Positions 14,639 through 48,726 of a DNA stretch of 64,000 nt are shown one piece after another. Each line of letters opens with the position of its first letter. Within the stretch, counting starts at the first letter, position 1. The stretch lies in contig CM039000.1 in NCBI GenBank assembly GCA_017499595.2, positions 434,001-498,000 of the forward strand, read 5' to 3'. The position numbers and the translations under genes were made by a program. Source of the stretch: Psilocybe cubensis (lineage: Eukaryota). The notes beneath the pieces were generated by a model that saw only the letters and a program-made list of their open reading frames with translations, was not told where the DNA came from and ran no database searches.

Positions 14639-14902
14639 TTTTTGTCTCAACCAACAAACTTCCGATTCTGTGCTTTGTGTTTGTAGTAGTCTCATATATC
14701 TTCCTAATGGCAAGTTACTGCGGTCGACTCCATGGTAACCTGTCATTCATTTCTCTCCTTTTGAGCAATATTTGAAACATAGCGTTCAACGTGTGTTATT
14801 GTTATTGTTGTTGTTGTTGTGTTGTGTGTATATCTTCTGTTTTTAAATTGACATGTCACCGTGATGGTCATGTAAAGACAGGGCCATTTCATACCTGTAT
14901 GT

Positions 14903-15204
14903 CATAAGACAGTTTATTTATAACGTACATTACCTAAGATTTAATAATAAGGATATTACGTGAGACATGGTGGATTTACTCCCGCTACCTAATTAGGAGA
15001 TTAGCGTGATGTACGTGTGATTTATCCTGGCAAATCATAGCGTACATGACGTGCCATTTAGCACTAAATGGAGCCGCCGGGTGGCATGCGGGATCCGCGT
15101 GTCGGGCTGCACGGGAAAAACACGGGCCGCAAATGAACCGGACGGGTCCATCTACATCCCGTGTATTGCAAGCAGACGGATCCGTTTTGACCCGTGTTGT
15201 GCTG
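14903..15204 (+). repeat. Left TIR of KDZ-1 (302 bp)
   Basis: Reverse complement of 30194-30495; only two mismatches seen, both CpG/TpG transitions. Confidence 0.95.
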
Positions 15205-15297
15205 TCAGACGGACCCATTTGACCCGTGTCTTCCCAGAGAGGGAGGGTTATTTATGGGGTATTGCAAGTCAATGAGCACAAGGGCTCCAAAAATAAT

Positions 15298-16476
15298 TTA
15301 TTCATCTCTACCGGTATACAAATGCTTTTCCAAACTCGATTCAATCCCTGCCAGCCCAGCGTCAATTTCCTCCAGCACATTATAAGTCAGAATCTCTGAC
15401 TGCAGCTGATGCAGCCGGAGGTTCTTGAACGTTGTAACCTTTCCGTCATAACTACTGTCGCCGACGGAACTGTCAATTATTTGGTCGTATGTTGCCCGTA
15501 GCTGCTGCTCGGTATAATTCTAAAATAGTTGTCAGTATCTAGTGCTTGGTAATATCTGAGTACATACATATAGAAAAGGAGGGTTAAAATACGCCGTCTG
15601 ATCTGTCACATTCTCGAACTCAATGTCAGACTGGGTGGGAGGCGAACCGGGGTAGCCGCCCATGGGATCAAACCTGCCGTAGGTTCGAAAATAAGGGTTT
15701 TGAAGGAGCAGGTGGCATGCTTCAGGGGGTGGAGAATAGCGACCTTGCTTCCTCTCAGAGAAAATAGCTAGACGAGAGTCCATAATGATTTTGTCGACGA
15801 CAGACGTGTATGAAACATGTGCTGCCATCAACGGCGGAGCCGCATCATCCCGGATGACAGGCATAGGTGGAGGATCCAGGGTATCTGGAATAACAGGCAT
15901 AGGGGGAGGATCCAGGGTAGGTGGAATGACAGGCATAGGGGGAGGAGCTAGGTTATTTGGAATGATTGGCATTGGCGGCGGAGCCAAGTCGTTCCGGATG
16001 ACAGGCATTGGCGGCGGAGCCGTGTCGTTCCGGATGACAGGCATTGGCGGCGGAGCCGTGTCGTTCCGGATGACTGGCATTGGCGGCGGAGCCAGGTTAG
16101 CTGGAATGACTGGCATAGGGGGTAGAGCCAGGCTAGCTGGAATTACTGGCATTGGCGGCGGAGCCAGGTCTTTCCGGATGACTGGCATAGGGGGCGGAGC
16201 CAGGTTAGCTGGAATAACAGGCATAGGGGGTGGAGCCAGGTTAGCTGGAATTACTGGCATTGGCGGCGGAGCCAGGTCTTTCCGGATGACTGGCATAGGG
16301 GGCGGAGCCAGGTTAGATGAAATGACTGGCATAGGGGGAGGAGCCAGGTTAGCTGGAATAACAGGCATAGGGGGTGGAGCCAGGTTATCTGGAATGACTG
16401 GCATTGGCGGCGGAGCCAGGTCATCCGTCCTTGCTGTGCGTTTGCTTTCCTTAGAGTTGCTAATATTTGAAGACAT
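15298..16476 (-). CDS. KDZ-1 cargo: proline-rich repeat protein of unknown function
   Basis: ORF 15532-16476 with (LAPPPMPVIxxN/D) repeats; GT-AG intron ~15520-15568 joins a last exon NYTEQQLRATY...GRDE* ending at 15298. True start may lie further upstream. Confidence 0.6.
15825..16425. repeat. 36-bp coding minisatellite, ~16.5 copies
   Basis: Unit like ggcattggcggcggagccaggttagctggaatgact; encodes a 12-aa repeat on the minus strand. Confidence 0.95.
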
Positions 16477-16959
16477 TGCTGATGCTCAGAAATCAATTTA
16501 AATTTACTTGAATTAATGCAATTAGTCTTACATTTTATAGGTTTTACGGGAGGAGGTTCCTTCAGTTTTTCGAGAAGCCTGGTAAGATTGTTGAGACTGG
16601 TGTAGTCAATGGGGGAATTTTTGCTAGAGGTGGGAATAAAGTTGTAGGAGGACATACAGTCCAGAAAGTGCAACTGGGTGGGCTTGTTTATATATCTCAC
16701 GGAATACAATACTATCCGAGGATTCTCCATGACACGGAAATAGATTCACCCGTGTATCGAACTTAGCAACTTTTGCACAAACTGGATCTGGTGAAGAAAT
16801 CACATGACTCAGATTGTACATGTTTGTGTATGGTTTTGTTTTGCGGGACCGCTTTTTTTTAGACTTTTTTTAGACTAACTCCAACCATGATCACCACCCC
16901 ACGTTCTACCGTGCCTCACCCATTAACGCGTCTTCCCCCCCAAAAAAAACGCTTTCCCA

Positions 16960-19537
16960 ATGGCCTCTTCATCTTCCACCACCGCCACCTTCGCCCAACG
17001 CCTTGCTGACTGGGAAAAAACCTTTACAGAGTGCTACCGCAATGGCGAAAGCGCGTTCAACGCTCAGTTGGAGCAGCTCTACAGGGACTTGGTGAGTAAT
17101 CGATATCCCTTGAGCATAAGACTTACTGAACAAAAAAAATTCATCCAAATAGGTTCCACTGTGTCAAGAACACGTCAGGGACGCGGCCAACTTCCGCCTC
17201 GTGGATTATGTCGCAAGCCCTGTCGTGTATTCATACAAGACCAGCCAGGGCAAGGACGGCAAGCAGGTAGCAAGGTTCGAGATTGACTGGGCAAATTTGC
17301 ATCATCAAGTTGCAAATTTCAAGGCATACCAGCAAGGCCAGGAGGCACAGAGGAAGAGGAGGGAGGAGGAAGAGCAAGAGAAGAGGAGGGAGAAGGAGGA
17401 GCAAGAGGAGGAGGAGAGGCAGAGGGTGGAGGAGAGGAGGAAGAGGGAGGTGAGGAGGAAGAGAGAGGAGAAGAAGAAGAGGGAGGAGGAAGAGGAGAGG
17501 CAGAGGGAGGAGGAGGAGGAGAGGCAGAGGGAGGAGGAGAGGAGGAAGAGGGAGGAAGAGAAGCAGAAGGTGGAGGAGAGGAGGAAGGAGGAGAGGAGGA
17601 AGAGGGAGCAGGAGAGGAAGACCAGGGAGCAGGAGAGGCAGAAGGCGGAGGAGAGGAGGAAGAGGGAGCAGGAGCAGGAGCAGGAGACAGACGAGGAGAG
17701 GAACAAGGAGGAGACGGAGAAGAGACGGGCCGAGAAGGGCAAGGGCAAGGCAGTCGAACCCCCGGTGGAAGACGGACCCGTGACAGACGCCCACAAAGAC
17801 AAGGGCAAACGGAAAGCAGCGGACCCCGTGGAGTCCATTCAGTTGGCTCCAGCGGACTACAGGGGCCCACGGACAAGGAAGGGGGAAATCATTCCCCACA
17901 TCACCGCCTCCAACATGCCTGGTCACCCAGCGTACAGGGAGAAGCTGGAAAGATTGGCGAAGTCCAAGCAGGGGAAGTTCAGGAGCAAAGCAATCATAAG
18001 AAGCCACACGGACGAAGACGCGGACGCCGACGTCGACGAGGACGACGAAGGCGATGACCAAGAGGCCCCGCCTACCACCCCCACCCGGAAGATGCTCACC
18101 CGGTCTGCAAAGAAGGACGCCAACCAGGACAATATCCCCCCCATCAGGAAGGCGCGGTCGAGATCCGAGAAAGCGCGCCAGGTGCCGGAGGGGATGGTGG
18201 ATATGGTGGAAAGGTGCACGGGATGCACCAAATTCAAGGTGCCGTGCCATGTCAAGGGAGAGACAGGCACTGAGCCTCTCGTCCCCGTAAAGCACCAATC
18301 TTGCGAGTCTTGCAAGTCTCGCAAGATTCACTGCAGTTTCTACCCGGGACGTTTCTACCCGGGACGCAACACTGTCGCCGGGCAATTCAACCTCTCGACG
18401 CCGCTGGGAAGTTACGGGGAGGTGTTGAAGTTGGAGGAGGGAGAGGATGTTCCGGCGAAGGGGAAGGCCGGGGAAGGGTCGTTCCCTGAGGATGTGGGAG
18501 AGCTGCTTGTGCAGCTGTTTGAGCGACAAGGCCGACTGATGGAACGGATGGATGGCCTTTCCGCGTCCATGACGGCGATAAACGCACGGATTGCAACGTT
18601 TGCCGAGACAAACTTGGCGGTGGAGAAGAGGATGAAGACCGTCGAGGACAGCTTCCAAGAGCTGAAGGCCGAGTGGACCACGGCAAAAGAACAAGTGGCA
18701 GGAAACACTTCGCTTTCCGTCACGATGTTCAACAACATCAAGCAGGCGATCCAGGACGTTCAGTACGTGGTCGGGGTTTTGCTGGAGCAGGATGAACAAA
18801 GGAATCCCGCCCCCAAACAGGCAGCAGGACCCTCCAAGACGGAGGTTGAACAAGAATCGGGTCCGTCGCGGACCCGTGAACCCACCTCTGCGCCACAATC
18901 CCCCAGCCCACCACCACCGCCAGCACCCCTCCCTTCCCCACCTCCACCTCCAGCAGCACCCATTCTCCCTTCCCCTCCTCCACCACCGCCAGCACCTGTC
19001 CTCCCTTCCCCACCCCCACCTCCACCCGCACCCGTCCTCCCTGCCGTGTCTGCGCCACCAACAGCGCTATTCTTGCCCGGTTCGACTCCGGAAGCGCCTT
19101 CGCCCCCCCCAGCTGGCCGACCCTCGCTCCCACCGGTACCACCCGTCCTTTCCCTGTCTCCACCACCCCCTCTCCCAGCTCCACGTCCTCGAAGTTCGAC
19201 GTCAAAGGCCGCACCGTTGTCAAAGGGTGCACCATTGTCAAAGGCCGCGCCATCGTCATCGTCAAAGGCCGGCCCATCCTCAAAGGCTAAGCCATTGTCA
19301 AAGGCTAAGCCATCCTCCAAGGCTGGGCCATCCGGGAATGGACACTCATCGGAGTTGTCTGATCCCTCGGACAGCGACGAGGTTGAAATTGTGGAGGAGG
19401 ATGTTGAGATCGTGGCGTCCACGCTGCCCGCGTCGAACATAGCCACAAAGACAAGGGCTGGACGGAAGCGAAAGGCGGAAACGACTCTGGCTGAAGCATC
19501 GCGCTCGCCCAAAAAACCCAAGGCCCAAAAAAAGTAG
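16960..19537 (+). CDS. KDZ-1 cargo: coiled-coil protein with Zn2Cys6-like cluster and Pro-rich tail
   Basis: Exon 16960-17091, intron 17092-17152, long exon in the frame of ORF 17201-19537; E/R/K-rich helix; CTGCTKFKVPC-x18-CESCKSRKIHC six-Cys motif; second coiled coil; basic NLS-like C-terminus. Confidence 0.75.
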
Positions 19538-19802
19538 TGTATTTCAAATCTTTGTAACTTTTTTTGGTCTCCTTTTTTGCCTTGTCTCATAGATTGCATT
19601 GTACAATTTTTAATATTTGGACTGTATATAGTTTTTACTCTCATGTGCTCATCTGTTTTATATCTCTCCCAAAAAGTAGCACTTGATGATTTTTAATGAA
19701 CCCGCTTTCTGTTTTGATTTTGTGTGAAAACATGTTTGAGAAACATCAAGATAAGAATGAAAAGCATCACATTCAATAGGTATTATGAATCTACTTCAGC
19801 AG

Positions 19803-22113
19803 CTAGGCTTTCAAAGTTTTTTTTCTTTGTCTTTTACCTGCTACAACAAGCAGACTTGCTTCCTGAAGTGCTAAGGCATCCGAAGTCACATTCCTGCGGG
19901 CCCGTGTTTCATCCGTATCTGGACTTGTTACTGTCTCCACAAAGGCATCACAAGTCACGTCCCTGCCGGCCCGTGTATTATCCGTGTCTTGGGTTGTTCT
20001 TGTCTGAACTCCACTTTCTTCCACTGTGTCAAGTGGATCTGAGTAGGGCTTTGTTTTTTTCCTAGGTTGAATCCTTCTAGTTGGTTTTGGCTTAACTGGG
20101 GCCGGTACAGAACTCTCTTCATCGGGTCCGTCCATTTCCGCCGTTCCGACATATGGCTTTGTTCTTTTTCTTGGCATAATCTTTCTAGCTGGCTTGGGAG
20201 GCGCCTCCTCAACCTCTGGAGTTGGGCTGGATGATGGATTGACAATTGTTGGGCTGGATCTACTTGGTAGAGAGGGTGGCTCGCTAGATCTTGAAGGTGC
20301 GTCGGTAGGAGTCTCATCCGTCTCTGGCGTGACTTCAAATCTGGCAGTAGTGCGTGGCATCGCGGATGCCGGACTGCCCCGTCCATTATCAAACTCTGAC
20401 AGATTGGATGATTCAGAGTCGCTTGAAGATTGGGTTTGAAGTCGTATAGCTTTTTGCCTCAGGCGACGTTTGGTTATTGCTGCAGGAGGTGGAGGTATCG
20501 GGTGGGCTTCTAGGCCGTCAAACAAGTTGGACGGATAGAGAGGTTCCATAATATCATAGCCATTTCCAAAAACCTTTGAAAATTTAAAGGGGATGTCTCC
20601 TTGGGCTTGACGGTCCCTCCATAGCTTGAGAATTGCAGAGGTTGACTCCAGGCGGAGCCGGCTCGGATCCGTCACGGGGATTGAACTTGGCCAATACTCT
20701 GGATCAATCATTTCTGCAGAACGCCTTTCAAGAGCATCCCAAGGAACACTTGAACCAGGCCTGTCCTTGGCTAAAGCTGTATACATAGTTAGCAAGTTTG
20801 TTGAGGACATAGACAAATTACACACCATAAACCTTGTTCATGTAAATTCTAATAATTGACTTTTGTGCATAAGCGACTTCTCTCCCAGTTGAGCCATAGA
20901 TAGGACTAGGTACTATTGGAAATCCATTGCTGCTAAACTTGAGGGATTTTTCATGAAACGATGCATCTGGCAGTGCTGGATTGGCCACACCCTTCTCTAT
21001 TTCTGAAATGTGGACGAGGTATTGAACAAATGCTCTGTGAAAAGCGGCCAACTCGGATGGAAAGAGTTGCCCAAAGGAAGGAATTCTGACATCGTCGAGT
21101 GCTAGATCGCTTGTCTGGGTCCTTCAATGCCCATCAGTCAACATTAATACGGGCCAAATTATTCCGCCGCGAATGCTTACGGCGGAAACTTTATCCGCCG
21201 TAGGGTGTTTACGGCGGATAAAGTTTCCGCCGTAAGCATTCACGGCGGAACTTGTTCATGCCGTGTTTAACACTTACATTGAGTATTCGATTTTACCCTC
21301 AATATCATAATGCCCCTCAAAGGTAATGGACCTCATACCCATTCTCTGCCACTTAAGTTTCTCCATTTGTCGAAGTATTTTTCTGCCTTGCCTGGCAGCA
21401 GTCCTGCAGATGTCAGATTGACGGCGGAAACAAGTTCCACCGACTCACTTTGCCTTCATTGATTTTGAAACACCTTTCTTATTCCATTCCTCGAGGATCT
21501 CCATGAACCTGTCCCGCTCCTCCTGAGTCAATCTGGCCTCAACCTGCTTACGTCCTTGTTGATAAAACTTCATCCAATCTTTACTTCCACGAGCAGCATT
21601 CCCTGATAGAAGCGCAACCTCGGAGTCAATCTCTGCCGACTTCTCCTCACGGAATACCATCTGAAAGGTTATACGGGAGTTCAATCCTTCCAATTTTACA
21701 CCAATTCGATTTGATGCATGGTTTCTAAACCAATTAAATATTCGCTATTGTGATGGTTTATGTGTGTAACAAAATTTTCAAAGAAACAACGAGCTCACAT
21801 GCTTCTTCACCTTCCATTCTTTGTGTAGTTGCTTATCTTCCTTCCTAGCACGTCTAGAGTATCTGTGATCCCATGTAGCTTGCAGCTCAGGTATGACAGT
21901 GTTCTGTATGTAGTCTGCTTTGGATGACTTTGATGTATCTTTGTAGGGCTGTACATGCTTTTTCAACACGCGCATTTCCTTTGTTGTCCAAATATTTGAT
22001 TCTTCCGGCGGAAAGTCACCCTCCGCCGTCTGTCCGTTTCTGGGTCCGTTGTGGGTTGTGGCATTTGCGGTAGAAGGAAGCGGATCCGCGTCGGGGGATG
22101 CATTGGTGGGCAT
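19803..22113 (-). CDS. KDZ-1 cargo: multi-exon helical protein with possible HMG-box-like segment
   Basis: Exons WTTKEMRVLKKH..., WMKFYQQGRKQVEARLTQEERDRFMEILEEWNKKG, WQRMGMRSITF, GFPIVP, IDPEYWP...LWRDRQ; clearly homologous to 39683-42077. HMG assignment is inference from known KDZ-linked HMG genes. Confidence 0.65.
21162..21250. repeat. Intronic near-perfect hairpin (41-bp arms, 7-nt loop)
   Basis: ttccgccgcgaatgcttacggcggaaactttatccgccgta-gggtgtt-tacggcggataaagtttccgccgtaagcattcacggcggaa; one mismatch; inside intron 21122-21277 (-). Confidence 0.95.
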
Positions 22114-22992
22114 AATTGCAGTGATGTAACAAGTAGCTTATCGATGAGTATCTGTGTGATCTGGTCAAATCTCACGTCATACGGAGATAAAATAAGCTTC
22201 CGATCATACTAAATAAATGATGTGATGTCATATTTTTCCCAATCAGGTAATCCCGCTTCATCGTCGGCCACGATGATCAAAGCATGCTGGTCGCTGTCAC
22301 ATACATTGACCTCATGATTTTGCAATAGTTCCCTCTGCATTCAATCAATAAACATGGAATTTTGTAAACATTTAGCGCTTTATATAAAGATAATTTTACA
22401 AGGTTTTAAATTCTTGTCAGATGGCTGTAAAGATACAGAAACACAAAATGCAAATTCACGTCTTCTCACCCAAAACTTGTGAAACCCAAAACGGCAGTCA
22501 TCTCAGAGACCATGAGAGGTATTCAAATGCATAATTTTTTTCAAAAAATATAATGATCCCAGTGAGCTCATTTTGACACATTTTCTAGTATATTGAGAAT
22601 ATCTCCTTAAATACGAGGATTCACATTCTACAAAAAATGTCATTCGGTAGCTATTAAAAATATCTTTCATATGATATACGCCGGAGGAATGAGGGGCCAG
22701 CCAGTGAAAAGATATTTCAAAAACACTCCAAAGTGTGGTTCTGAAAGGGTCGTTCTGCATCATATTGTACATTTATGATGGGATCACGTCCATTTTGTGC
22801 ATCTCTGGATTAAGTTTTGTTCATAACATTTCACTCACTCATCCAAATATGCTGCAAGATAAGTCATATGAAAGCTATTTTTCTCCTCTTTAAAACGGCA
22901 TAATTGAGGGAAATTTATCTACAGAAATAAACATGTTATACTACATTTAGATCTGCGCTCACAGGCTATCAGACTCTTTGTTTCCAACATCC

Positions 22993-25900
22993 ATGGGCTT
23001 CAAGAAAGTACCTGATAGGGGATCGGATGAGGAGTTTCCCAATGTTCGGGAGGCCTCCTGGTCTAGTGGGGCCAAGAAACGAAAGAGAAGGCGGCCGAGG
23101 ATCCACAAACTTCCTGCAGAATCATCATCAACAAACCTCCCTCAAACAACGACTTACTCTTTCCAAAACCATGAACACAACATTCTGGAAGAAGAAATAC
23201 CTCATTATCCGGGAGATCTAACTGATCAGCAGGTACTTGATAACCTGAGACAGCTAGATGACGACAGAACGGGAGGAAAGGTATGTTTTAACATGTTTTC
23301 AGTAGAATGATCAGGATGACTTTACCTATCCAGTCTCAAAATGATTACCTGAGGGAATGGCTCCCGAAACGAGAGGTGTATCTTGGAACAATGATTGGAG
23401 GAGAAGCCCCGGATCCGGATCTGAATGGACAGTGTCAGCAATGTCAAGGAATGTCTGGAGTGTGGAGATGTTGCCAATGCTTTGGCTCTAGAATTTTGTG
23501 TTCTGAATGCCTGCGAAGAAACCATCAATTTACACCTTTCCACCGCGTTGAGAAGTGGACGGGTCTATATTTCCGTCCGGGAGCTCTGTGGGAAGTGGGT
23601 GTCAAGTTGTATTTGGGTCATAATGGGAAACGTTGTCCTTATCCCACGGATCCGAGCCACCTAGGATGGGACGGCGGAAACAATTCATCCGGGAGTCATG
23701 GGCACGGCGGAAACAATTCGCCCGTCTTTGAAGATGAACACGGATTGGACCTGGATCCGCTTCCTGCGAGCAATGACCAAGAATCCTTTACGGCTCAGCT
23801 TCTGGCGGACCCGGAGGTACCCCATTTGGTTGAGCTGGACGATGGAGACGATGAAGACGATGATCTATTCGAGGAAGTCGATACAACCTATCTGGACCAA
23901 CCTCGTCCAAAGGCAGCAGACAACAATGGAATTCCTTTCAAGGCAATTGTGCACACCTCCGGAGTCCATTATCTGCCCGTGCGAACATGCACATGCCGGT
24001 CCGTCCGCCTTCCGTCTATCGATTTACAGTATCTGGAGATGGGATTATTTGCAGCCAGCTTTGAAAACGTTCAAACTGTGTTCACAGTTGAGGTCCTTGA
24101 GGACTTTCGGATGGACAACCTCGAGTGCAAAATGTCGGCTTATCAGTATTACCAAAAGTTGCGAAGACTGACTTCGCCAGCGTTTCCAAAAAAGGTGCTG
24201 AACCGCTATCGTGAATTGAGAAGGCTTAGTAGAGAATACAGGGACCTTGTCCTGAGACGACAATACGGAGAAGGGCATACAAGAGAAGCGGTGGTCCCTT
24301 ACTATCGTCATTGCCATGATTCATCACCAGAGAGGATGGGTATTAATGTATCTGATCCAATTGACGGCGGATCTGATAGTCCGTCTCAAGAAGTCGGAAT
24401 GTCAACGGACCCGTCTCTGGGACACGGCGGATTAGATGGTCCGCCTGTACCACAAATGACGCGGACCGAGGATCATCCCGAAGTTGAAGATAGGAGAGGG
24501 AAGTTGGCCTTATTCTGCCCCGCCTGTCCACAGCCTGGAATAAACCTACCTGATAACTGGATTGATGATGCTGATAGGCAAGTTTTAGTTATTCTTCAAG
24601 GGTGACTGCAATTAACAGCAAGTAGCAATCTGTACATACGTAGTTATGTTGCAGATGGTAATTTCAAAGCAGATCACCTCAATCAGAAAAACGAGGGAGA
24701 CGATGTTTGGTTGAGCGTTGGAGAAGGATACATGACTGCTCCGGGCCCTTACAAGGAGCACATTAAGGAAGCAATTTCTCTTGCTCCACGTTATAAACGG
24801 GTGCGTTATCTACCATGATTTATCTTTCACGGCGGATGCTTACGCTCCGTGTCAAAATCTTCTACGGCGGATGCTTACTTTCCGTGTCAAAAAATATCAG
24901 GAACAAACATGTCATAACTACCACGCCCAGAAAGCTGAAAACAGAGTCAGCCCGGGTAAGAGAGTACGTGGAATTGGGGCACACGCTTGCGCTAGGCACG
25001 GATGCTTCTGTCCATCCAGCGTTGTCGATTTTGACAAAGGTGAAAAGCAGATGCACATGGATTGGTCTTTGACTCAGGCCAGGGAAACTACCAACACACA
25101 GGGAATCACAAAACATTTGGAAATCTACGATATAAACTGTCAATATTGCGTTAACTTGGCAAGGCGTCTCTCAGAGTCCACAAAAATGCATTGGCCACCT
25201 TCTGTTAAAATGATTTTTGCAATTGGTTTATTTCACGTCCACGGGCACAAGACGGAATGTCTTTACAACTATGCATCCACCTATGTCCCGGGTGTGGGAA
25301 TCATTGACGGAGAAATCCTGGAGCCGTTGTGGTCCGTGTTAAATGACACATCCCGGAGTACACGTTCCGCTACCACTGCCCATCGAGCAGAGGTTTTGGA
25401 CGACCACATGGGGGATTCCAACTGGAAGAAGACCATTAATATGGCTGCAACAATTGCTGCAAAGTTCAAACGGGCACGGGAACAGTCCGGAATCACAGAC
25501 CAATTTTATAGGGGTATCACGGATCAACAAGATTCCGGGCTCATCAACACTTGGGAAGATGAAATTTCAAAAGCAGAAGCGGACCGAGAACAAGGTGTGG
25601 CCAACGCTGTTGGCAAGGTAATGGCAAGCAAAGTGAAAACGGCTGCTGGACGCCAAGAAATTGAATTGCATCTTTCAAATATGGAACTTACATCTAATGG
25701 TGCTACTGGAAAGGCAGCATGGATATCATCCGGCTTAAAACTGGAGCAAGCGCAGTACGATTATTTCAATTGCATCCTACAGAATTTAACATGTTTTTAG
25801 ATTGGAGCTCAGGGACCATGTCAGAAAGCTCGGAAAGCATCCTTCCACCGCGCAGAAACTTGACTTGGTCAATAAACGTCGCTCCATGCGGACCCGCGTT

Positions 25901-26876
25901 GAAGCCTTCTGTCGATCCGCTATGACCTTCATGGGCGAAGATGTCTTGGAGGATATTCAAGGGGACATTGCTCCCATACTTGACTATGAAGTCAGTGACA
26001 ACGACGATCCTGATCTTGGAAATGTCAACATTACCCGCGCGGATCCGGAACGACAGCCGCTTCCGTTTCCCTCCGCCGTCAAACAAGATTTCTTTGACGG
26101 CCTTGACGCGGGAACAAACCTCATTTTAAAAGGGCTTCGCAAACTTGAACTTCAAATAAGACATGGCCACGCAGAGGACTGTCTGGAAGCGGTCCGGTCA
26201 GCCTTGATCCAGCTTTCTTGGCAGTATAAATATCAGGTTCGGACCGCCGACTCCGTCTATATGGGGACTCGTGCTTGGGATGGCGTCAAGCTTTTGAATG
26301 CTTCCTGGAAATTGCACCGGCGACTCTACAACACAAACCGTCAGAAGATGATCTATTTATCTGCTGGCGTGCGAGACGAGGATAATATTCGGAAACAATA
26401 TCCCATTCTGCAAGTCCATGATTGCAAGCATAGTAATGCCGTGTCGGATCCGAACATTCGCGGAGGAAGCTCGGACCGTCTAAGTTGGATTTGGAGATCC
26501 CGTCAGGGCCTGGACAATGATAATCAATTATACGTTAATGAGTGTGAGTACTGCCATTTGTATTTCTAATTTTTTTCTCAAAGGTTTCTTAGTCTTCAGG
26601 CTAAACTGGCTCCGCGCGCGAGCTCAGAGGAATAGATGGCAAGAGGAGCTGGCCTTGACAAAAAAGGAAATGGAATGGACTGTCAGATTTTATGTGTATA
26701 TGGCAAAGACATGGCGTGCACGGCATGATTTTGTTCCTGACAGGTTAGTTGGTCACAGGGCAAATGCTCAAAAGCAGATTGCCATGTGGAATGATCTGGG
26801 GCGGGCCGCGGATAAGGTCTTCCGTCAAATTAACCCGGAGTATCCGTCCGTGTGGAGATTTATAATTACAGATTAA
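22993..26876 (+). CDS. KDZ transposase with CxC2 cysteine cluster, apparently intact (6 exons)
   Basis: CQQC..WRCCQC..CSEC..H.FTPFHRVEKW; CxC2 region VHTSGVHY..CTC; LALFCPACPQPGINLP; ADGNFK; CARHGC; YDINCQY; FHVHGHKTEC; DGEILEPLWS; LDDHM; WLRARAQRNRWQEE. Introns 23281-23333, 24578-24625 (GC-AG), 24801-24900, 25755-25800, 26544-26592 keep the frame. Confidence 0.92.
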
Positions 26877-26920
26877 CCAGTTCTTTGAACATTCTTGTTG
26901 TATCTCATCTTGTTGAATTC

Positions 26921-28545
26921 ATGCACTTACCGCGGCTTTTTAAACCTCCTGTCGAGGACGAACATCATCTCCTTACCTATGATGAGCGACGTGCTCTGGC
27001 CAAAGTTCATGTCCATATTTGTGGTGCACGGATCCGTGCCGGATACCGTTTGTTCATTGCAAACGGAGACTCTGTTTCCTCCGTGCGTCGCCAAAAATGG
27101 ATGTATTTGCTTGACCTAGAGGTGGTAAGACAGTAATTTTGAACTATTATATCTTGCATTGAGAACTGCTCGATAGGCTATACTGCTGAGAGTACTCGGA
27201 TACTGCTATGTCAATGGATTCCAAGTCGATATTCCATTTTTTATATCAGAAATTCTCAATCAGAGCGTACATGCCGTTTTGAACCGAACTCCCCACCATC
27301 GAGCTGTTTTATTTGAATCTCTAAATCAAAGCTGGTCAGCATGGGAAGATGATGAAATTTTAAATCAGACCAAGAGCTGGGGATATTGGTGGAGGGACGG
27401 ATTTGCTGAAGGCGATGAGTGGCAAGTTGCCTTTGTTACCGTTGAATCGCAAGCAAGAGAATTTTGGAACAAGGTATGTTTTTTTATTGCTGTGGATTAT
27501 ATCTGATTTGCGTCCTTCCCACCAGGTGGTTCTGCCTGAATACCAACAAGAGGTACTCCGGCTAAATAATCAGAGGAAAGAAGCTAAGGAGGGCGCAAGT
27601 TCATCCACCTCTGGGCCTCCAAGAAATCAAGAAAACAATCCCAAGGGCAAGGGAAAGGCGGCTGAACGGACATCCGTCCCCACCTCGGGGAAGCACGGAT
27701 CCGCGTTGACGGGAAAGCACGGCTCCGCGTTTTCACCGCCCACGGGGAAACCCAATCCGCCGACCCGTGTTGCAAACACGCGGGATGAAACATCCCCAAT
27801 TGCAATTTCTGACCACAGACCGCCCTACTGTCCCCGCTGCGGTCAGCCTATCCTAACGGGCGTAATGAGGGAGTTGGCTCACCTGCGCCGGAATGTGGCG
27901 GACAAAATGAAGAATGCCCATAAAGCAGTGACTACTTCTTCGGCCGCCTTGGGCAGATATTCTGTATTGGAGAAGATGTGGATTGACTCTAAGGAGCTCC
28001 CGTTCTCTAACGGCAAGGGGCTTTCAGCCAAATACAAATTTCAGCATCCCGTTCACCCTTCTCCTGACAGTTGGGGCGCTATAACGGCTCAAGCCCGGTC
28101 CTTCAAGGTCTCAAAGCTCAAAGTCGCTTCATTTTACATCAACGACATTTTTTATTCTTTTATTGCCGTCAAGGAACTACCTTTTCATCCACTCTGGTAT
28201 CATTCGCCACCCTCCAACACTGCAAATATTCATCTCCCAACAGATACTCTGCCTACGCCCGGTTCCGTCAGCCCTCCGTCAAATGCACACACCAGCAATG
28301 CCTTCCTTTTTAACGCAAGGTCAAGACCTGTTTTCCCGGGAGAAGAGGATGATATTGATAGTACGTCCGATACCACTGAATCCTCTACACCAGCTACGTT
28401 TTTAGAGCATCTCGCACAGGACTTTGAAGAGGAGGCGGATGAGGAGTCTTCCGCCGGTGATACGACGGAGGAGTCAGATGCTTCCGGTAACTCGGAAGAG
28501 CTTAGCGAGGACGTGTCGGAAACACCCTGGGATGAGGAATCTTAG
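26921..28545 (+). CDS. KDZ-1 cargo: conserved unknown protein (WW and CxxC motifs, acidic tail) downstream of the transposase
   Basis: CGARIR..KWM..LDLE / GYCY..G..VDIPFFI / WWRD / CPRC; homologous to 46111-47829 and 58176-59746. Confidence 0.65.
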
Positions 28546-28686
28546 TTGCCCACCTCTCGCACAGGACATCGAAGAGGAGGCGGATGATGCCTTTTCCGCC
28601 GGTAATACGACGGCGGAGTCCGATGATTCCGGTAACCTTGGAAGAGCTCAGCGCGGACGCGTCGGAAACACCCTGGGACAGAGAAT
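28408..28686. repeat. Diverged ~144-bp tandem duplication spanning the stop codon of the CxxC cargo gene
   Basis: ctcgcacaggac...gaagaggaggcggatga...ggaaacaccctggga occurs twice (~28411 and ~28556). Confidence 0.85.
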
Positions 28687-28772
28687 TCTGGTTGTGCTGT
28701 AGCTTTCGTACTGTTTTGGTTTGGAAATATAAAAAAATCTTCCCCAAACCCAACTTCCAAGTCAAAAACTGA

Positions 28773-30052
28773 TCATATTTCAAAATCAAAAGCGTTGGTG
28801 GCCGGTAAATTTGCAAAAAGATCGTACGTAGTAGACCATCCTGCCTCTTGGACTCCCAGCTCTTCAAATACAGTCCTACGCATGTAATAGACTATGACTG
28901 CCCTGTCTCCATCGCACACCGCGCCGTGTTGAAGCAACCTGCCGGTAATTGCAACAAGGGTCATGGGATCATACTTGTACCGAAGTCCAAGGCCCGGAAG
29001 CTCAAGCCGTCCGTGTTCACCCTTCCCAAGCGGCATCAAAAAATCGTACCATGAGTAGCACGACCCATTATCCCGATGGTATGGTGTATCTCGGTTGCTG
29101 ATCACGGTCATGACTCCAAAGGGCGAACTCCAAATTGTGAGAATTTGCTTCAATATTTCAGCCTTATGGACAAGCTCCGGTTCCGCAGCAAGCCGTTGAA
29201 GAAATTTCATTCCCGCCCGGTACTGCTCGGGATGTATAATGCTCAAGATGGCTCCCAGCAAAGCCGAAGATGTCGTCGTGTCTCGTATAAACTCCTGTCC
29301 AATTGGATTACACAAGTCCAAGGAGACCTCAAGCGGGTTGGACGTCTGAGGAAAATATGAGGCAGTATAATAATTAGCATACAAGTTTCTCACCTCATGG
29401 CCTTGCTGAAACCATGCCGGGGAGAAGTTAATATTTCCAGGTTGAACCCAACCTGGCTCATGTCGAAAGTAACTGTCATTGACCCTCCAGCTTGTGGCCA
29501 AAGGTACCGCCTTGTGAATCATTGTTTCAATATCCCGTAATGAATTCCACACACTCTCCTGTTACTCTTTAGAAAGCATAATATATGAATTAATTGGTCT
29601 GTTTCTAAAACTCACCACCCTTGTCTCTGACAAAATACCTGGCAGGTACCACACCAATATGTTGCCTGCACTATCGACCACAGTTCCGGGCAGGGTTTGG
29701 TACTGTAACGCGGAATGCACCGGAGAAAACTTGTCTTTCAGGCGAGCCTCAACGGTAAAATTCTGACCCGTGCAACGTGCACTGAGATGAGTCAAATATT
29801 CTTCTGCATCCCACGTCGTATATTCTGCCATTCACACATTATTTAATCTCAATTTTCAAAGCTTATTGATTGCATACCTTGATTTTCAAATGCCTGCAAA
29901 ATCACCTCCACAGCTAGATTGCACTCAAACATGGTCTCAGCACTGAAGTTTTCCCGGATTTGATTAGGCAGTTCTGCATGCCAAAGACGACTAGCTATTT
30001 GTGCCTTCATGTAGTTTGAGAGGGATTGGGTTAGCTCAAAGGCATAATCCAT
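28773..30052 (-). CDS. TET/JBP-family 2-oxoglutarate/Fe(II) nucleic-acid dioxygenase
   Basis: Four exons; IHPEQY, NRDTPYHRD (HxD), LELPGLGLRYKYDP, LLQHGA (distal His), DRAVIVYYMR (2OG-binding Arg), matching the fungal TET/JBP pattern; no stops seen in exons. Confidence 0.88.
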
Positions 30053-30193
30053 GCTATCAGGGTATGTGGAAAGGAATGTGCTGCCAGTATAATCTATACA
30101 CCTTATTACATATATTAACGGTCATCCGATGTATGATTCTTCAAGGCGGATATTTGTCGGAATACAGAAGCGGGTGGATGAATGGACCCGTCT

Positions 30194-30495
30194 CAGCACA
30201 ACACGGGTCAAAACGGATCCGTCTGCTTGCAATACACGGGATGTAGATGGACCCGTCCGGTTCATTTGCGGCCCGTGTTTTTCCCGTGCAGCCCGACACG
30301 CGGATCCCGCATGCCACCCGGCGGCTCCATTTAGTGCTAAATGGCACGTCATGTACGCTATGATTTGCCAGGATAAATCACACGTACATCACGCTAATCT
30401 CCTAATTAGGTAGCGGGAGTAAATCCACCGTGTCTCACGTAATATCCTTATTATTAAATCTTAGGTAATGTATGTTATAAATAAACTGTCTTATG
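30194..30495 (-). repeat. Right TIR of KDZ-1 (302 bp)
   Basis: Inverted copy of 14903-15204. Confidence 0.95.
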
Positions 30496-31099
30496 TGCCT
30501 GTATATTAATATATTCTTTTCTGGATAAAGATCTGGGGGGAAATGAGAGTGCATTGGTTGTTCCAGGTGGGCTTTTATAGCTTTTTGCTACAGGTCATAT
30601 GGTATAGGTGACATTAATGGGTACAGACGGTAAATCTCTGTCCCCCTGATGTGATCCATTTCGAGTCATAATTCTTTAAGCTTTAGCTTTATCAGTTACG
30701 GATACATGCGTATCCTTCGAACTTTTCTTGTGAGATACTGGTCGATCTGCTTGCTTTATGCGCATCGATATTGAATGGCAACATAGCTCTGATCTACCCT
30801 TAGTCCCTACCCACCCTTAAAGGTATGATCGTTCTCCGTTTCTTTACCATCTATAGTCTCCAGTGCCACTTTTCTCGAATACTATTTCTGTTTGTATCTG
30901 GAGGCTGTTACAGTCTCACTTGTTTAAGTACATCCACGACTTGAACACGACCCGAACACGAGGTGTGAAATGAGGATGAATCTGGTTCAAATCAACCCCG
31001 CAAAGCTCGTCTTGAACTCTCACACTTACAGGTAATCACGACAATTTTTGCAAGCAGCTTGAGGCTCTTCTTCCTTGAACTGCTAGAATATTTCTGGCC

Positions 31100-31989: not shown

Positions 31990-32293
31990 TGTGATGATTC
32001 GTTCAATTACTAACTACTTATTTAGCATAGATACTCGTGACTGACTAGTAGATTAGATCATGGACACTCACGGGCACTCTAGATAGGTGTTGGAATCATT
32101 GTATTGGATTCGGGACTGATTATTTGGGCTGACATATTTGTATTCTGATTCAAGTAACTACGTATTTAGTCCGTTTCGCGATTCGGATAGTATATAGTCT
32201 GTATTTTACTCACGGAATCAACCCAGTGCCAGATTCCTAATTCCACACTCCATTTTGGGCACCTTCTCCTTTTGTATATTTGAGTTTCTGACA
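31990..32293 (+). repeat. Gypsy 5' LTR (~304 bp, TGT...ACA)
   Basis: First 176 bp identical to 51190-51365; 3' end inferred from ...ctgaca followed by a putative PBS. Confidence 0.8.
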
Positions 32294-35087: not shown

Positions 35088-35344
35088 CACATACTAAGAC
35101 TACATAGTACTGTATAACATGGTACAGTGGACTGGTATAATGTATCGTATGATAGGGATTCAATAAATTCATTCATACACTGAATATGACATATCTATAC
35201 ATAGTAATCTACATTGTACTATACTGTGTGCAATCCTTGAATGTGGAGAGGAGGTACCCGTCACATGGGTGGGTCGGGTGTAGGCACTTGCACACAATGG
35301 GTGTCGGAGAAATCGAATGTTGGTGTTGGGTGTCCGACTTGCAG

Positions 35345-35742
35345 TGTGCGAGTGCAAGTGCAAGAGCGTGAGTGCGAGTGTGAGTGTAGGTGCGAGTGCG
35401 GGTGCAAGTGTGGGTGCAGGTGTGGATGCGGGTGCGGGTGGGAGTGCGAGTGCAAGTGCAAGTGCGAGTGGAAGTGTGAGTGTGAGTGCGGTTGCAAGTG
35501 TGGGTGCGGGTGCGGGTGGGAGTGCGAGTGCGGATGCGGGTGGGAGTGCGAGTGCGGGTGCGGGTGCGGGTGCGGGTGCGGGTGCGGGTGCGGGTGCGGG
35601 TGCGGGTGCGGGTGCGGGTGCGGGTGCGGGTGGGAGTGCGAGTGCGGGTGCGGGTGCGGGTGCGGGTGCGGGTGCGGGTGCGGGTGCGGGTGCGGGTGCG
35701 GGTGCGGGTGCGGGTGCGGGTGCGGGTGCGGGTGCGGGTGTG
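35345..35742. repeat. (GCGGGT)n hexamer array, left subterminal region of KDZ-2
   Basis: Near-pure gcgggt runs 35554-35740 with degenerate gcgagt/gcaagt copies to the left. Confidence 0.95.
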
Positions 35743-35850
35743 AGAGTCATTCAAGAATCACTAGTAATACTAGTAGGTTGAAAAAAATTATTGTACAATT
35801 TCAAGGACAATATTCATTCATAACAAAAATGGCTACAGTAAACTATCCCA

Positions 35851-36428
35851 CTACTTTTCAAGATCTTCACGAATACTATGCCTTTCTTCTAACTTAATGA
35901 GAGTTTTTGCCATGCATTGATCCATGTATGCATGATATCTCCTATCCCCGTCAGCCACCTTCAATTTTGCAACCTCCGCCATAAAAAGCCGATGCACGGC
36001 ATCCTGATACGAAATGCCAAGTCTCTTTTGCAAAGCACACACTTCAGCGTGAAGTGCGAGCATCTCATGATCCGTCAAAGACTGAATAGTTTTTAGTTAA
36101 ATTCCTCCAATGTATAAGTGACTAAAATAGGCTTACATTTTCGGGGGGCACTCGTAAAATACCGGACAGGGTGATATACGCATCAGACTTTTTGGCATTA
36201 GACTTCTGTAAGAGAATTAGCAATGAATTTTGAAAATCATAATTAGCTTGCACTTACTTGAGTCAGGTCGGCACTAGTGACACTGACATCCTCTGTAGCA
36301 CCCATGGTTTCCAAATCGTGCTCCAAAGAGGATAACATGAAGCGGGGGACAACATATTTAATGTTGTCCGGGCCATCAACAGCGATGTAGCCTTCCGGGA
36401 TGTTTGGTAAGGTGTTCTGGACACTCAT
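35851..36428 (-). CDS. KDZ-2 cargo: small spliced protein of unknown function
   Basis: Three probable exons: MSVQNTLPNIPEGY..., KSNAKKSD...CPP, HAEVCALQKRLGISYQDAVHRLFMAE; GT-AG boundaries visible. Confidence 0.55.
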
Positions 36429-36701
36429 ATTGGGGGAATTTGACAATAACAGATAGCGACTCACCATAACTAAGGGCCTTTTATATTTGTCGGACAAGCC
36501 TCAAGCCGTTATCTAGGCGATCAGTCGGATACGCGCTTCAAGGGGCAAATGATTAAGTGCATACAATCATGTGATCGTGAACCGGATAACGAGCAACAGG
36601 GGCCCAAGCCGCTTAGCTCTCTTATCCTTTTTGCTTCCTTCCACCACCAGCCCACTAGCCCGCTCCCAAGCTTGCACCTCAAGAACTCAACTTTATATAC
36701 C

Positions 36702-39534: not shown

Positions 39535-39682
39535 CAATGCATTGTAGTAGATTGGTGGGGGGCTATTTTTTAAAAAAAAAATTGCTTAATATAATAATTT
39601 GTTTGCTTGTTCTCATATATCACTGAGTACCTAAAATTGCACCTTAGGTATAATAGAATGTAAGCTAAAATAAAGCCGGCAA

Positions 39683-42077: not shown

Positions 42078-42386
42078 ACTATACCAAATAAAATAAGTTA
42101 AAATTGATGAGGTAGTTCTCTACAGAGCCAACAAATATTGGAACAGACTAACCTTGAGGCTATGTTGAGGCTTGGGTTCTCAGAATCAGATGCACCCCAA
42201 AAATATTGGGGGTTGGAGAAGAATGAATGTGGAAACACACACACCAGAATCCTGCTCCCTTTATACAAGTCCATAAACATGAGCACATGCATATTAGGTA
42301 AGGCTAAACTGTGCAGTTGGATTGAGCCACCCTAATGTATAGCAATAATCAACCAAGACAGGAGCTTTTCTTATCTTGTTCCTATC

Positions 42387-45300: not shown

Positions 45301-46062
45301 AAGCCAGAATATCAAAAGCTAGAAGTCACCTTAACCAAATCCGAGAACTAATAGCAGAGCGGTCTTTCCAGTTTAAAGAAGTTGTCCGAAAGGGTCCACA
45401 AAAAGGAGTTCGCACACGAGGTCAAACAGCGGTAAAAGAGTTGAAAGATCAAATTTCAATGCATGCACAGGCGTACTCACACTGCCAAAGTCGTATTGTA
45501 AAGCTCAGGGCCGATGATGAAATTCTCAAGGAATTGCGCATTTTAACCAAAGAAGACATCAAATCAAGTACTGCTATTCTCAATCCAAATTTGCCAGGAT
45601 CAACCAAATTTCGTTTATCATGGATTTGGTATTCTGTACACCAAAGGTTCGGACCACGATGGGCGCTTGACCCAACAGCTACACCTGATGCCGACCCAAA
45701 CACATTGTCGGAGGAAGCAGATCCCGCTACTGTGCTTGAATGTGAGTTAATTCAATGATATATTATGGGCGCTTATATATTTCCGACCCGACTATGTAGT
45801 TAAACGAGTTCATTGGTTGCGGGCACGAGCACTCTATCATCGGTGGCAAGAAGAAGCAACACTAGTGCGATATGAAATGCAATGGACTGTTGCATTTTTT
45901 GTACACCAAAGTGAGAAGTGGAAGACATACATTATGTCGGACCCGACACTAAGTTTGGGCGCAAGAGCATATGCATATCGGAAATCAGAAGCTTGGTATA
46001 GCTTGGCATTGGCTGGGGATTACTTATTTAGGCGGGTAAATTCACTCTACAAGCCACTGTAA
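42387..46062 (+). pseudogene. CxC2-KDZ transposase, inactivated
   Basis: FCPACPQPG, ADGNFK, YDIVCQY, FHVHAHKDEC, GEILESLW; in-frame stops at 43294 (TGA) and 44904 (TAA); deletion/frameshift near 43545. Confidence 0.9.
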
Positions 46063-46110
46063 TTTGAAATACTTCTCTTTCTTATCTACTTCCATCTATC
46101 TACATCCATC

Positions 46111-47829: not shown

Positions 47830-47969
47830 TGCGTACATACTTAGTATTCTATATACTATCTATGTACTTTCAAATTTTATTTGTTGAATTTCTGTGTGCA
47901 CACTTGGTACTACTTATTGAGTAAAACACAAAAATCCTAAAATTGCTGCTATCTCCAAACCACAAATCC

Positions 47970-48540: not shown

Positions 48541-48726
48541 GACCGGAACCAAAATATCTCGCTGGCAGGTACATTCAATGAAGCCATATAATGCACTACA
48601 TTGTGAGTCTCCTTTGCGGGAAATTTTGCATTCAATGATTCAGTGAATTTATTGAACCCACATTATATGGTACATTGTAAGATACTTTGATACACTTCTT
48701 CTTGTACATTGTAGCATGCCTACCTG

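Follow-up and report, generated by a model that had tools for sequence, protein, structure and literature searches.

The third intron of the accessory gene of KDZ-1, a transposon of the mushroom Psilocybe cubensis, contains an 89-nt palindrome. We put at about one in two the probability that this hairpin is a copy-specific, unstable triplication of a 26-nt mini-palindrome derived from the 8-nt CpG word ACGGCGGA, and that such words are putative docking sites. The DNA analysed is a stretch of 64,000 nucleotides (contig CM039000.1, positions 434,001 to 498,000; hereafter the window), and all positions given below are counted from its first base.

Three KDZ elements are represented in the window. 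KDZ-1 (14901..30497, + strand) is flanked by a perfect 7-bp target duplication (CCTGTAT), has 317-bp inverted ends with GT..TG as its outermost bases, and contains a CxC2+KDZ transposase on the + strand and a Tet_JBP gene on the - strand (28776-29561). KDZ-2 (35088..48726, + strand) is nested in a gypsy retrotransposon, has the flanks AGAAAAC(C) and has the ends CA...TG. The KDZ transposase domain and the N-terminal CxC cluster are present in both elements (PF18758, KDZ: 1.2e-37 in KDZ-1 and 1.2e-35 in KDZ-2; PF18803, CxC: 1.1e-21 in KDZ-1 and 3.2e-06 in KDZ-2). KDZ-2 seems to be without a recognisable Tet gene, as the KDZ-1 Tet frame matched only itself in tblastn at E<=1e-4. The third element, KDZ-3, contributes a single exon of its accessory gene to the window (exon 1, 63721-63984).

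The accessory genes of KDZ-1 (19806..22113, - strand, 668 aa) and KDZ-2 (39686..42077, - strand, 670 aa) each have five exons, and their intron phases are identical (0, 2, 2, 1). Intron 3 of the KDZ-1 gene lies at 21122..21277 (- strand), as the first-pass annotation had proposed; it is a GT-AG intron (GTAAGT...AG) of 156 nt in phase 2. The proteins that match best come from P. cubensis; its gene model P0001, as deposited, has 668 aa, is 97% identical over the queried exon and runs across the junction of this intron. Intron 3 of the KDZ-2 gene (41084..41231, - strand, 148 nt, phase 2, GTGCGT...AG) is homologous to it in place and phase, and is spanned by the deposited model P0005, 96% identical over the queried exon. 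On comparison of the sequences, the position and phase of this intron, common to KDZ-1 and KDZ-2, are older than both families.

The protein encoded by the KDZ-1 accessory gene is predicted to fold into an HMG-box-like domain (approximately aa 124-196) and a GTF2I-like domain (approximately aa 296-428). The label "HMG-like", which it had been given earlier, may hold by fold but not by sequence profile. When the exon-B domain, modelled with a pLDDT of 80, was compared with 48,161 chains, ranks 1-10 were all HMG boxes, with Z only 4.4-5.0 and an rmsd of 2.6-11.1 A over 59-78 aligned residues (over all comparisons of the accessory protein, Z for HMG boxes went up to 5.4); Pfam HMG_box, on the other hand, matched 0 of 8 members of the accessory-protein family at E<=5 and none of the five KDZ-1 accessory-gene reading frames at E<=0.01. 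The fold matches are weak, the highest Z being 7.0 for GTF2I (89/90 residues aligned); Pfam DNA-binding families found no match among the family members, and Foldseek against the PDB returned no match at E<=0.001, whether for the exon-B domain or for the model of the whole protein. By its predicted fold, the accessory protein looks DNA-binding.

The palindrome in intron 3 (21162..21250) had been described as an 89-nt near-perfect inverted repeat built from about six CGGCGGA units, and this description proved accurate. Its 41-nt arms (21162-21202 and 21210-21250) are separated by a loop of 7 nt and pair at 40 of 41 positions (98% complementary); within 21163-21249 the unit CGGCGGA occurs six times without mismatch, its orientation alternating. 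The six words make up three mini-palindromes, of which the left (21162..21187, 26 nt) reads TTCCGCCG-N10-CGGCGGAA and the right (21225..21250, 26 nt) is its reverse complement. Among the 16 pairs listed for the 64 kb, no other local inverted repeat comes near the palindrome in size, the runner-up having arms of 22 nt that match at 73%. CGGCGGA itself occurs 34 times in the window against an expectation of 5.02, a count reached in 0 of 100 shuffles. The palindrome is no assembly artefact: raw reads (X21) and a 67-nt contig (X1) cover it, with a variant at 21170 as the sole difference.

The same reads and contigs, which derive from related strains, were used to judge the form of the palindrome in those KDZ-1 copies that could be resolved (a further set of contigs, X10, ends at 21066 and resumes at 21278, with intron 3 outside its coverage). 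Repeats have been gained or lost between related copies: the long form is present in only about a quarter of the resolved copies, and the others have one of two deletions of 63 nt, each of which retains one 26-nt mini-palindrome. Short form A (joint 21161>21225, 127 reads) retains the right unit and short form B (joint 21178>21242, 130 reads) the left; 9 further X21 reads also skip 63 nt. Approximately 73-76 X21 reads cover the palindrome loop, compared with approximately 495 in the flanks, and the X1 contig depths are 48.2 for the long form and 75.9 and 78.1 for the short forms. In the short forms, intron 3 is reduced to 93 nt and the stem to only 10-12 bp. Part of the short forms may have arisen as PCR or sequencing jumps over the hairpin, although two studies agree on them and 16 reads link form A to a diverged flank.

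Long DNA palindromes in bacteria and yeast are deleted via slipped mispairing between short direct repeats. Similarly, in KDZ-1 the two alternative 63-nt deletions each end in a direct repeat of 8-9 nt (a microhomology) inside the palindrome, and each leaves one unit from the end of an arm. The difference is that the KDZ-1 variants are fixed in separate genomic copies of a multicopy element, and that the direction, from long to short, is deduced. The long form probably came first, and both short forms probably followed by slippage between these repeats.

The words are specific to one family and are dispersed well beyond the intron. ACGGCGGA occurs 17 times in KDZ-1, 0 times in KDZ-2 and 19 times in the window, whereas GGAGTCGG occurs once in KDZ-1 and 8 times in KDZ-2, and GTCGGA 6 times in KDZ-1 and 44 times in KDZ-2. 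The words are spread over 10 clusters, and KDZ-1 has inverted pairs beyond the hairpin at 22006-22028 and 28595-28617. The words are also overrepresented in coding DNA, as determined by shuffling of synonymous codons in stop-free frames or deposited models (the frame 23292-24602 includes a 42-nt intron). In the reading frames of KDZ-1, ACGGCGGA occurs 7 times compared with 0.36 under shuffling (approximately 20-fold; 0/1000 shuffles reach 7), although the pairs 23671/23704 and 24364/24424 may be local duplications, so that the independent events may be fewer than 7. Four of these sites lie inside the deposited transposase model P0158. CGGATCCG likewise occurs 7 times in KDZ-1 frames against 0.46 expected (0/1000), and in the frames of KDZ-2 there are 49 GTCGG against 17.6 +/- 3.5 (0/1000; approximately 2.8-fold). 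A 36-bp array at 15832-16425 has CGGCGGA in another context (TTGGCGGCGGAGCC); being a proline-rich, coding-type repeat, it was not counted as the same word.

Arrays are not peculiar to intron 3; several other introns carry the family word as well. In KDZ-1, it is found in 3 of the 12 introns modelled in two genes, and the two longest of the 12, with 156 and 100 nt, are among the three; a 94-nt transposase intron has none. The 100-nt transposase intron (24801..24900, + strand) has a tandem duplication of 35 nt that contains ACGGCGGA twice. Intron 2 of the accessory gene (21404..21448, - strand, 45 nt), adjoining the hairpin, has one ACGGCGGA in a degenerate tail-to-tail pair, which is a degenerate copy of the palindrome unit related to 21243-21264. 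In the KDZ-2 accessory gene, GTCGG is present in both enlarged introns (126 and 148 nt) and absent from the short ones (52 and 56 nt). Of the enlarged pair, intron 1 (41712..41837, - strand, 126 nt) contains GTCGGACCCGACACCCGAC. Intron 3 carries the GTCGG array that the first-pass annotation had counted at about seven copies: there are 8 GTCGG and 1 ATCGG, all on the + strand, with 5 of them extended to GTCGGA, and the 8 GTCGG are arranged in three direct repeats that each start with AATCARTCGGAGT (TRF did not score the array as a tandem repeat). The subterminal repeats of KDZ-2, too, are built around GTCGG, and the right subterminal 650 bp contain 11 CCGAC, within 48086-48586; the arrangement GTCGG-N3-GTCGGAA occurs twice in this element. 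The 317-bp inverted ends of KDZ-1 have no ACGGCGGA, and CGGATCCG, ACGGACCC and similar words are found there instead; thus, KDZ-1 does not have ACGGCGGA as a classical end-binding motif.

Other KDZ lineages were represented by the metagenome contigs L001-L006, obtained in a profile search with 7 sequences. They fall into three lineages (L001/L004/L005, L002/L003 and L006), and in all three the homologous phase-2 intron is 48-50 nt long, has at most one word and no array; a long hairpin is absent from all six contigs. An array at this place is therefore dispensable. By their sequences, these lineages possess words of their own, CCGTCGG being found 7 times in the 2.4 kb of L006 (once in intron 3) and CCCGCGG 15 times in L002.

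In the explanation that we favour, the functional unit is likely to be the word and not the 41-bp stem. The words, mostly in inverted pairs 7-11 nt apart, would be sites at which a DNA-binding protein with sequence specificity docks. This protein would most probably be encoded by the element itself, with the accessory protein (HMG-box/GTF2I-like) and the transposase, through its CxC2 domain, as the candidates. Local duplication would let such sites build up wherever the sequence is free to change, namely in introns and non-coding ends. The palindrome of KDZ-1 would then sit in an old intron tolerant of additional sequence, and the hairpin would be an unstable by-product of the pile-up of words in permissive introns; KDZ-2 would present a parallel case with another word (GTCGG) and with direct repeats. 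Both the binding of the words by a protein and the identity of that protein are what we infer from the analyses taken together. Among the three roles that the first-pass annotation had offered for the intron array (protein-binding site, cruciform or Dicer-substrate hairpin), that of a protein-binding site is the most plausible.

The alternative that survives best, though we regard it as rather unlikely, is that the palindrome is neutral: a duplication by fold-back or template switching that a permissive intron took up and that slippage is now eroding, with words that are functionless left-overs of duplication. The scarcity of the long form among resolved copies, the microhomologies in which the deletions end, the short array-free introns of the three other lineages and the resemblance of several word pairs to local duplications are all as expected for neutral decay. 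Against it stand the excess of words over synonymous shuffles in the coding sequence of both elements and their spread over 10 clusters. In addition, each family has its own CpG word, L006 and L002 included, for which duplication alone is insufficient to account.

It is considerably less probable that the CGG/CCG inverted pairs are sites for a host transcription factor and form an intronic enhancer. Zn2Cys6 zinc-cluster proteins, a class of fungal proteins that bind CGG half-sites, would be candidates for such a factor. The units are inverted half-sites that contain CGG, they have a fixed short spacing, and they are located within transcription units. This leaves unexplained why two elements in one genome have words that do not overlap, and why the words fill coding sequence too.

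We give marginally less credit still to a source of hairpin RNA, in which Dicer would cut the 41-bp stem in the intron and the small RNAs would act on the element. The near-perfect stem can fold from either strand, and as RNA the 156-nt intron reaches -94.7 kcal/mol, compared with -41.6 +/- 4.0 for shuffles (z -13.3; 0/200 equally good). However, approximately three-quarters of the resolved copies retain only the 10-12-bp stem, the KDZ-2 array does not fold (z +2.6), and the relatives L001-L006 have no hairpin. It is also unlikely that a Dicer hairpin is directed at the motif of its own element: a word of 7-8 nt cannot guide a 21-nt small RNA elsewhere, and the small RNAs would thus match this intron only.

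Very little probability remains for the view that conservation of position implies a functional platform, with intron 3 of the accessory gene as a dedicated array site across KDZ families. Intron 3 is the longest intron, or nearly so, and has the densest array in both families of the window. Against this, the same intron in the three other lineages is short with no more than one word, an outcome that the first-pass annotation had itself named as a refutation of its reading, and words occur in other introns too. As 2 of 4 accessory-gene introns are marked in each family, the chance of sharing at least one is, by simple arithmetic, 5/6. Finally, an independent foldback MITE inserted in the intron is hardly credible, since, despite the foldback shape of the palindrome, its borders (AAATTA on one side, CTTGTT on the other) show no target duplication, the 64-kb window has no second copy of it and its read depth is below, not above, that of its flanks, and the shorter alleles end within it and keep 26 nt, so that they are not empty sites.

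The docking-site reading can be extended, although the extension is speculative and on balance improbable: KDZ transposons might run a system of self-recognition similar to those of VANC and TnpA, in which their own CpG words, coding ones included, would be read by a fast-diverging accessory protein, and, in elements that carry it, Tet/JBP would be aimed at their own methylated CpGs. ACGGCGGA, GTCGG(A), CCGTCGG and others would then be the words of the respective lineages, and the arrays in introns, with the palindrome as one of them, would serve as fast-evolving landing pads of high density. As KDZ-2 appears to have no Tet gene, the aiming of Tet would be limited to elements of the KDZ-1 type or to action in trans.

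The nearest known parallel is the VANC21 system of VANDAL21, a Mutator-like element of Arabidopsis (Hosaka et al. 2017, PMC5735166; Sasaki et al. 2023, PMC10398659), in which VANC21 binds tandem repeats of a motif in introns and other non-coding parts, with wide gain and loss between copies (PMC5735166). As far as these accounts describe it, the likeness to the KDZ elements extends to short family-specific motifs, found as local repeats in introns and in intergenic and terminal non-coding parts, to repeat gain and loss between copies, to other motifs in related families, and to an accessory protein beside the transposase. The differences are that the host is a fungus and the superfamily is KDZ (Kyakuja-type); that the words contain CpG and are in excess in coding DNA too, with one array palindromic and not tandem; that the accessory protein is unrelated, having predicted HMG-box/GTF2I-like folds in place of the DUF1985 + DUF287 of VANC (PMC5735166); and that KDZ-1 has its own Tet/JBP gene. 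The KDZ elements are known here from sequence, and their binding and anti-silencing are putative.

A second parallel is TnpA of the CACTA element En/Spm, with its subterminal motifs (Zabala and Vodkin 2008, PMC2613891; Sasaki et al. 2026, bioRxiv 10.64898/2026.08.24.746577). TnpA binds clustered family-specific motifs (10.64898/2026.08.24.746577). According to these descriptions, this too is a two-protein element, in which the accessory protein reads reiterated direct and inverted motifs able to form palindromes; motifs and binders diverge together between subfamilies in one genome; dense clusters are required for targeting; and TnpA directs CG hypomethylation. There, however, the sites are subterminal, whereas the KDZ-1 word is internal and not in the inverted ends; the transposase belongs to another superfamily, and binding in KDZ is putative.

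Kyakuja elements with Tet/JBP have been described in Agaricomycetes (Kojima 2025, PMC12730594), and those of Laccaria have 7-bp target duplications and CA..TG ends, without TIRs. The present elements share with them, as described in that account, the KDZ transposase with CxC2, the Tet/JBP gene (in KDZ-1), a 7-bp target duplication (perfect in KDZ-1), CA..TG ends (in KDZ-2) and a host in the Agaricales, but KDZ-1 differs from the Laccaria families in bearing 317-bp inverted ends. HMG, hairpins and subterminal repeats are not mentioned in the main text of that paper, and its one "palindromic" passage concerns other elements. Among the papers listed in literature searches on KDZ elements, no title or abstract opening deals with arrays of motifs inside such elements or with hairpins there, and the 10 papers of one such listing do not contain the name Psilocybe cubensis.

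Should the words be neutral, KDZ-1 would still provide a clear case, in nature, of how a long palindrome decays via two alternative slippage deletions in a multicopy family. If, instead, they are docking sites for a protein of the element, fungi would have, in these mushroom transposons, an equivalent of the anti-silencing systems of plants (VANC, TnpA), from which some KDZ elements would differ by carrying the demethylating enzyme itself, and it would become testable how transposons that bear Tet/JBP shield only themselves from cytosine methylation.

The DNA of the window is that of a basidiomycete, its nearest proteins being models deposited for Psilocybe cubensis, which are 97% and 96% identical over the queried exons. 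A Pfam scan of the long reading frames identified one gypsy and one copia retrotransposon as well as three KDZ transposons, all three of which combine a CxC2 cluster with a KDZ transposase domain. KDZ-1 is a complete-looking, 15.6-kb element (14901–30497), bordered by a perfect 7-bp target duplication, CCTGTAT (14894–14900 and 30498–30504), and by inverted ends of 317 bp that match at 98% (14901–15219 and 30181–30497), whereas passages of PMC12730594 state that the Kyakuja families from Laccaria are without TIRs. Its Tet_JBP gene (28776–29561, minus strand; Pfam 9.5e-19) is the only one that tblastn with this Tet frame detected in the window. KDZ-1 also has a proline-rich frame of 36-bp (12-codon) repeats (15832–16425) and a low-complexity open frame of 794 codons without a Pfam match (17153–19534), both of them putative genes. 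KDZ-2 (about 35088–48726; ends CA...TG; flanks AGAAAAC(C)) lies within the gypsy element, the 176-bp LTRs of which are 100% identical (31990–32165 and 51190–51365), and splits it in the reverse-transcriptase region (insertion flanks 35081–35088 and 48727–48734). Excision of KDZ-2 in silico and joining of the flanks restored the gypsy reverse-transcriptase frame (EFKKTQVEYLGFI); thus, the gypsy copy was in place before KDZ-2 inserted. The copia element (1548-aa open polyprotein frame; two identical 289-bp LTRs, 52920–53208 and 57887–58175) is situated between a tandem array (51704–52582) and the KDZ-3 transposase. The array, with periods of 73/210 bp and a unit containing CGGCGGGTCGGAAAC, which holds both CGGCGG and GTCGGA, may represent KDZ-3's subterminal array. 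Exon 1 of the KDZ-3 accessory gene (63721–63984, plus strand) is 45% identical to residues 1–86 of P0005, and the remainder of the gene, including intron 3, lies outside the window.

When the deposited annotation models P0001 (668 aa) and P0005 (670 aa) were fitted to the accessory genes of KDZ-1 and KDZ-2, respectively, each gene resolved into five exons and four predicted GT–AG introns. The introns are 54, 45, 156 and 49 nt long in KDZ-1 and 126, 52, 148 and 56 nt in KDZ-2, with phases 0, 2, 2, 1 in both. Given the identical phases and the common five-exon structure, introns 21122–21277 (KDZ-1) and 41084–41231 (KDZ-2) are homologous, as the first-pass annotation had proposed. The inverted repeat that it had reported in the KDZ-1 intron lies exactly where it was placed, with 41-nt arms (21162–21202 and 21210–21250) that are 98% complementary around a 7-nt loop, and its approximately six CGGCGGA units are six exact copies of alternating orientation. 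As RNA, this intron folds at −94.7 kcal/mol vs −41.6 ± 4.0 kcal/mol when shuffled (z −13.3; 0 of 200 shuffles as good), and the runner-up among the 16 pairs of local inverted repeats listed for the 64 kb has 22-nt arms at 73%. The 89-nt palindrome comprises three mini-palindromes, the outer two of which (21162–21187 and 21225–21250; TTCCGCCG-N10-CGGCGGAA) are mutual reverse complements. The KDZ-2 intron does hold an array, counted there as about seven GTCGG(A); the number is eight GTCGG plus one ATCGG, all on one strand, in three repeats starting AATCARTCGGAGT. No secondary structure was found in the KDZ-2 intron by RNA folding against shuffles (z +2.6).

The common position of array and hairpin had been taken as a sign of a conserved functional platform. 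A profile scan of metagenome contigs yielded six KDZ loci in three other lineages (L001/L004/L005; L002/L003; L006), and in L002, L003 and L006 the accessory gene is divergent from the N-terminus of the adjoining KDZ transposase, as in KDZ-1. All three lineages have the equivalent phase-2 intron, at 50 nt (65 nt with the next in-frame AG), 48 nt and 50 nt, respectively, and inspection of the printed sequences revealed an array or hairpin in none of the three; the L006 intron has one copy of that locus's own word, i.e., its short family-specific CpG-containing motif. The phase-2 intron is old, unlike the arrays in it.

The copies of KDZ-1 themselves vary. Raw DNA reads (X21) and contigs of a separate study (X1) were placed on 20300–22200. 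In X21, depth is about 495-fold in the flanks vs 73–76 reads spanning the palindrome loop, and there are two joints at which 63 nt are skipped (21161>21225, 127 reads; 21178>21242, 130 reads), a third, minor joint having 9 reads; the shorter-side anchor reaches 72–74 nt and the junction ambiguity is 8–9 nt. The same three forms occur in X1, at depths of 48.2 (long) and 75.9 and 78.1 (short), and in both studies the long form makes up about one quarter of the resolved KDZ-1 copies. Each short form retains one outer mini-palindrome, leaving a 93-nt intron with a 10–12-bp stem, and since these outer units mirror one another, what distinguishes the two forms is which way round the 10-nt spacer lies. 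Of about 75 reads of the 7-nt loop, 16 have it in reverse-complemented form, and about 60% of reads carry T at position 21170, a base that renders the palindrome perfect. In the simplest history, slippage between the members of one or the other of two pairs of 8–9-nt direct repeats would have removed 63 nt from an older long palindrome. Library preparation retains some small likelihood as the source of the short forms, through jumps across the hairpin, but both studies give the same picture and one of these forms (A) is tied to a diverged flank by 16 reads. In itself, the hairpin is an unremarkable unstable palindrome, though a very clean one. Of 106 variant places listed between X21 copies over 20300–22200, C>T and G>A account for 74, a share that fits methylated-cytosine deamination or RIP-like mutation of the family.

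The units of the arrays are words specific to each family and dispersed throughout the elements. Of the 19 window copies of ACGGCGGA, 17 lie in KDZ-1, none in KDZ-2 and two elsewhere; GGAGTCGG is found once in KDZ-1 vs eight times in KDZ-2, and GTCGGA six vs 44 times. A second dispersed KDZ-1 word, the palindrome CGGATCCG, has all ten of its window copies in KDZ-1, one of them in each inverted end. Synonymous-codon shuffling gave expectations of 0.36 for ACGGCGGA and 0.46 for CGGATCCG in KDZ-1 reading frames (seven observed for each) and 17.6 ± 3.5 for GTCGG in those of KDZ-2 (49 observed), with 0 of 1000 shuffles reaching the observed count in each case, in frames several of which are reading frames rather than verified transcripts (23292–24602 includes a 42-nt intron, 24602–24643) and with some coding word pairs that may be local duplications. 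Four KDZ-1 word sites are translated as D/H-G-G in the transposase model. The right subterminal repeats of KDZ-2 have the GTCGG word as their core (11 CCGAC in 48086–48586), and the palindrome GTCGGACCCGAC, which contains this word, is found in three places in KDZ-2. The metagenome loci have dispersed CpG words of their own: CCGTCGG occurs seven times in 2.4 kb at L006 (144–2213); L002 (58–6705) has 15 CCCGCGG and eight CCGTCGG, six of the eight as CCCGTCGG. Nor is the hairpin intron special within the elements: the one ACGGCGGA of KDZ-1 intron 2 belongs to a degenerate inverted pair that is related to the unit beside the hairpin, the transposase intron 24801–24900 (100 nt, in agreement with deposited model P0158) has two in a 35-nt tandem duplication, and KDZ-2 intron 1 (126 nt) contains GTCGGACCCGACACCCGAC. 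As each family has two marked introns among the four of its accessory gene, the chance that at least one is common to both is 5/6 (our own arithmetic).

The accessory-protein family has 280 cluster representatives at E ≤ 0.001. The label "HMG-like" is a fair one for the fold, family membership being unproven: none of eight members matches Pfam HMG_box, even at E ≤ 5, and when the exon-B domain was folded alone (pLDDT 80), HMG boxes took ranks 1–10 among 48,161 chains, at Z of only 4.4–5.0. With an AlphaFold model from 30 sequences, confident for residues 40–440, as query, Foldseek returned nothing at E ≤ 0.001; VIA-align gave a GTF2I domain/repeat as the top match (Z 7.0; 89 of 90 residues; model residues 296–428) and many HMG boxes on residues ~124–196 (Z 4.5–5.4). 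Residues 296–428 of P0001 correspond to exons D–E, at about 19806–21121, and Pfam GTF2I weakly matches the family member P0012 (E 0.013). The modelled folds suggest a protein that is plausibly DNA-binding.

Passages of the cited papers describe arrays in the introns of VANC21 and VANB21 and also upstream of VANA21 for VANC21/VANDAL21 in Arabidopsis (PMC5735166), and, for Spm elements with their clustered motifs, a TnpA that directs CG hypomethylation of cognate copies (10.64898/2026.08.24.746577; PMC2613891). As in the systems so described, the KDZ words are short, family-specific and different between sister families, the arrays are local duplications in introns and other non-coding parts, they are rapidly gained and lost between copies, and the elements encode an extra protein. 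Because of this match, the words may be read, with a probability of about one half, as putative docking sites for a sequence-specific protein, in which case the hairpin would be an unstable amplification in a permissive intron and the 41-bp stem itself would have no role. The binder would most likely be the accessory protein or the CxC2 domain of the transposase; that the words are bound at all, by what, and with which epigenetic consequence are the parts that we infer. Against docking stand the absence of ACGGCGGA from the KDZ-1 inverted ends, the weak fold evidence for the accessory protein and the three other lineages without an array in the homologous intron. Pure neutral decay is possible, if on balance unlikely, and it is improbable that the words are sites of a host zinc-cluster-type factor. 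A Dicer hairpin is hard to sustain, given the short forms of KDZ-1 copies, the unfolded KDZ-2 array and the lack of a hairpin in the other lineages, and it could not act "against the motif", which is too short. Very little likelihood is left for the conserved platform, the homologous introns of the three other lineages being short and free of arrays. An independent MITE at 21162–21250 is very unlikely, because depth falls below that of the flanks, no duplication flanks the palindrome and the window has no second copy.

These arrays and the folds of this accessory protein are not described in the Kyakuja/Tet literature consulted, including passages of PMC12730594. Of greater interest than the hairpin is the system of CpG words, each specific to one family, in fungal transposons that carry Tet, which would be, if binding were shown, a new form of a known kind of system.
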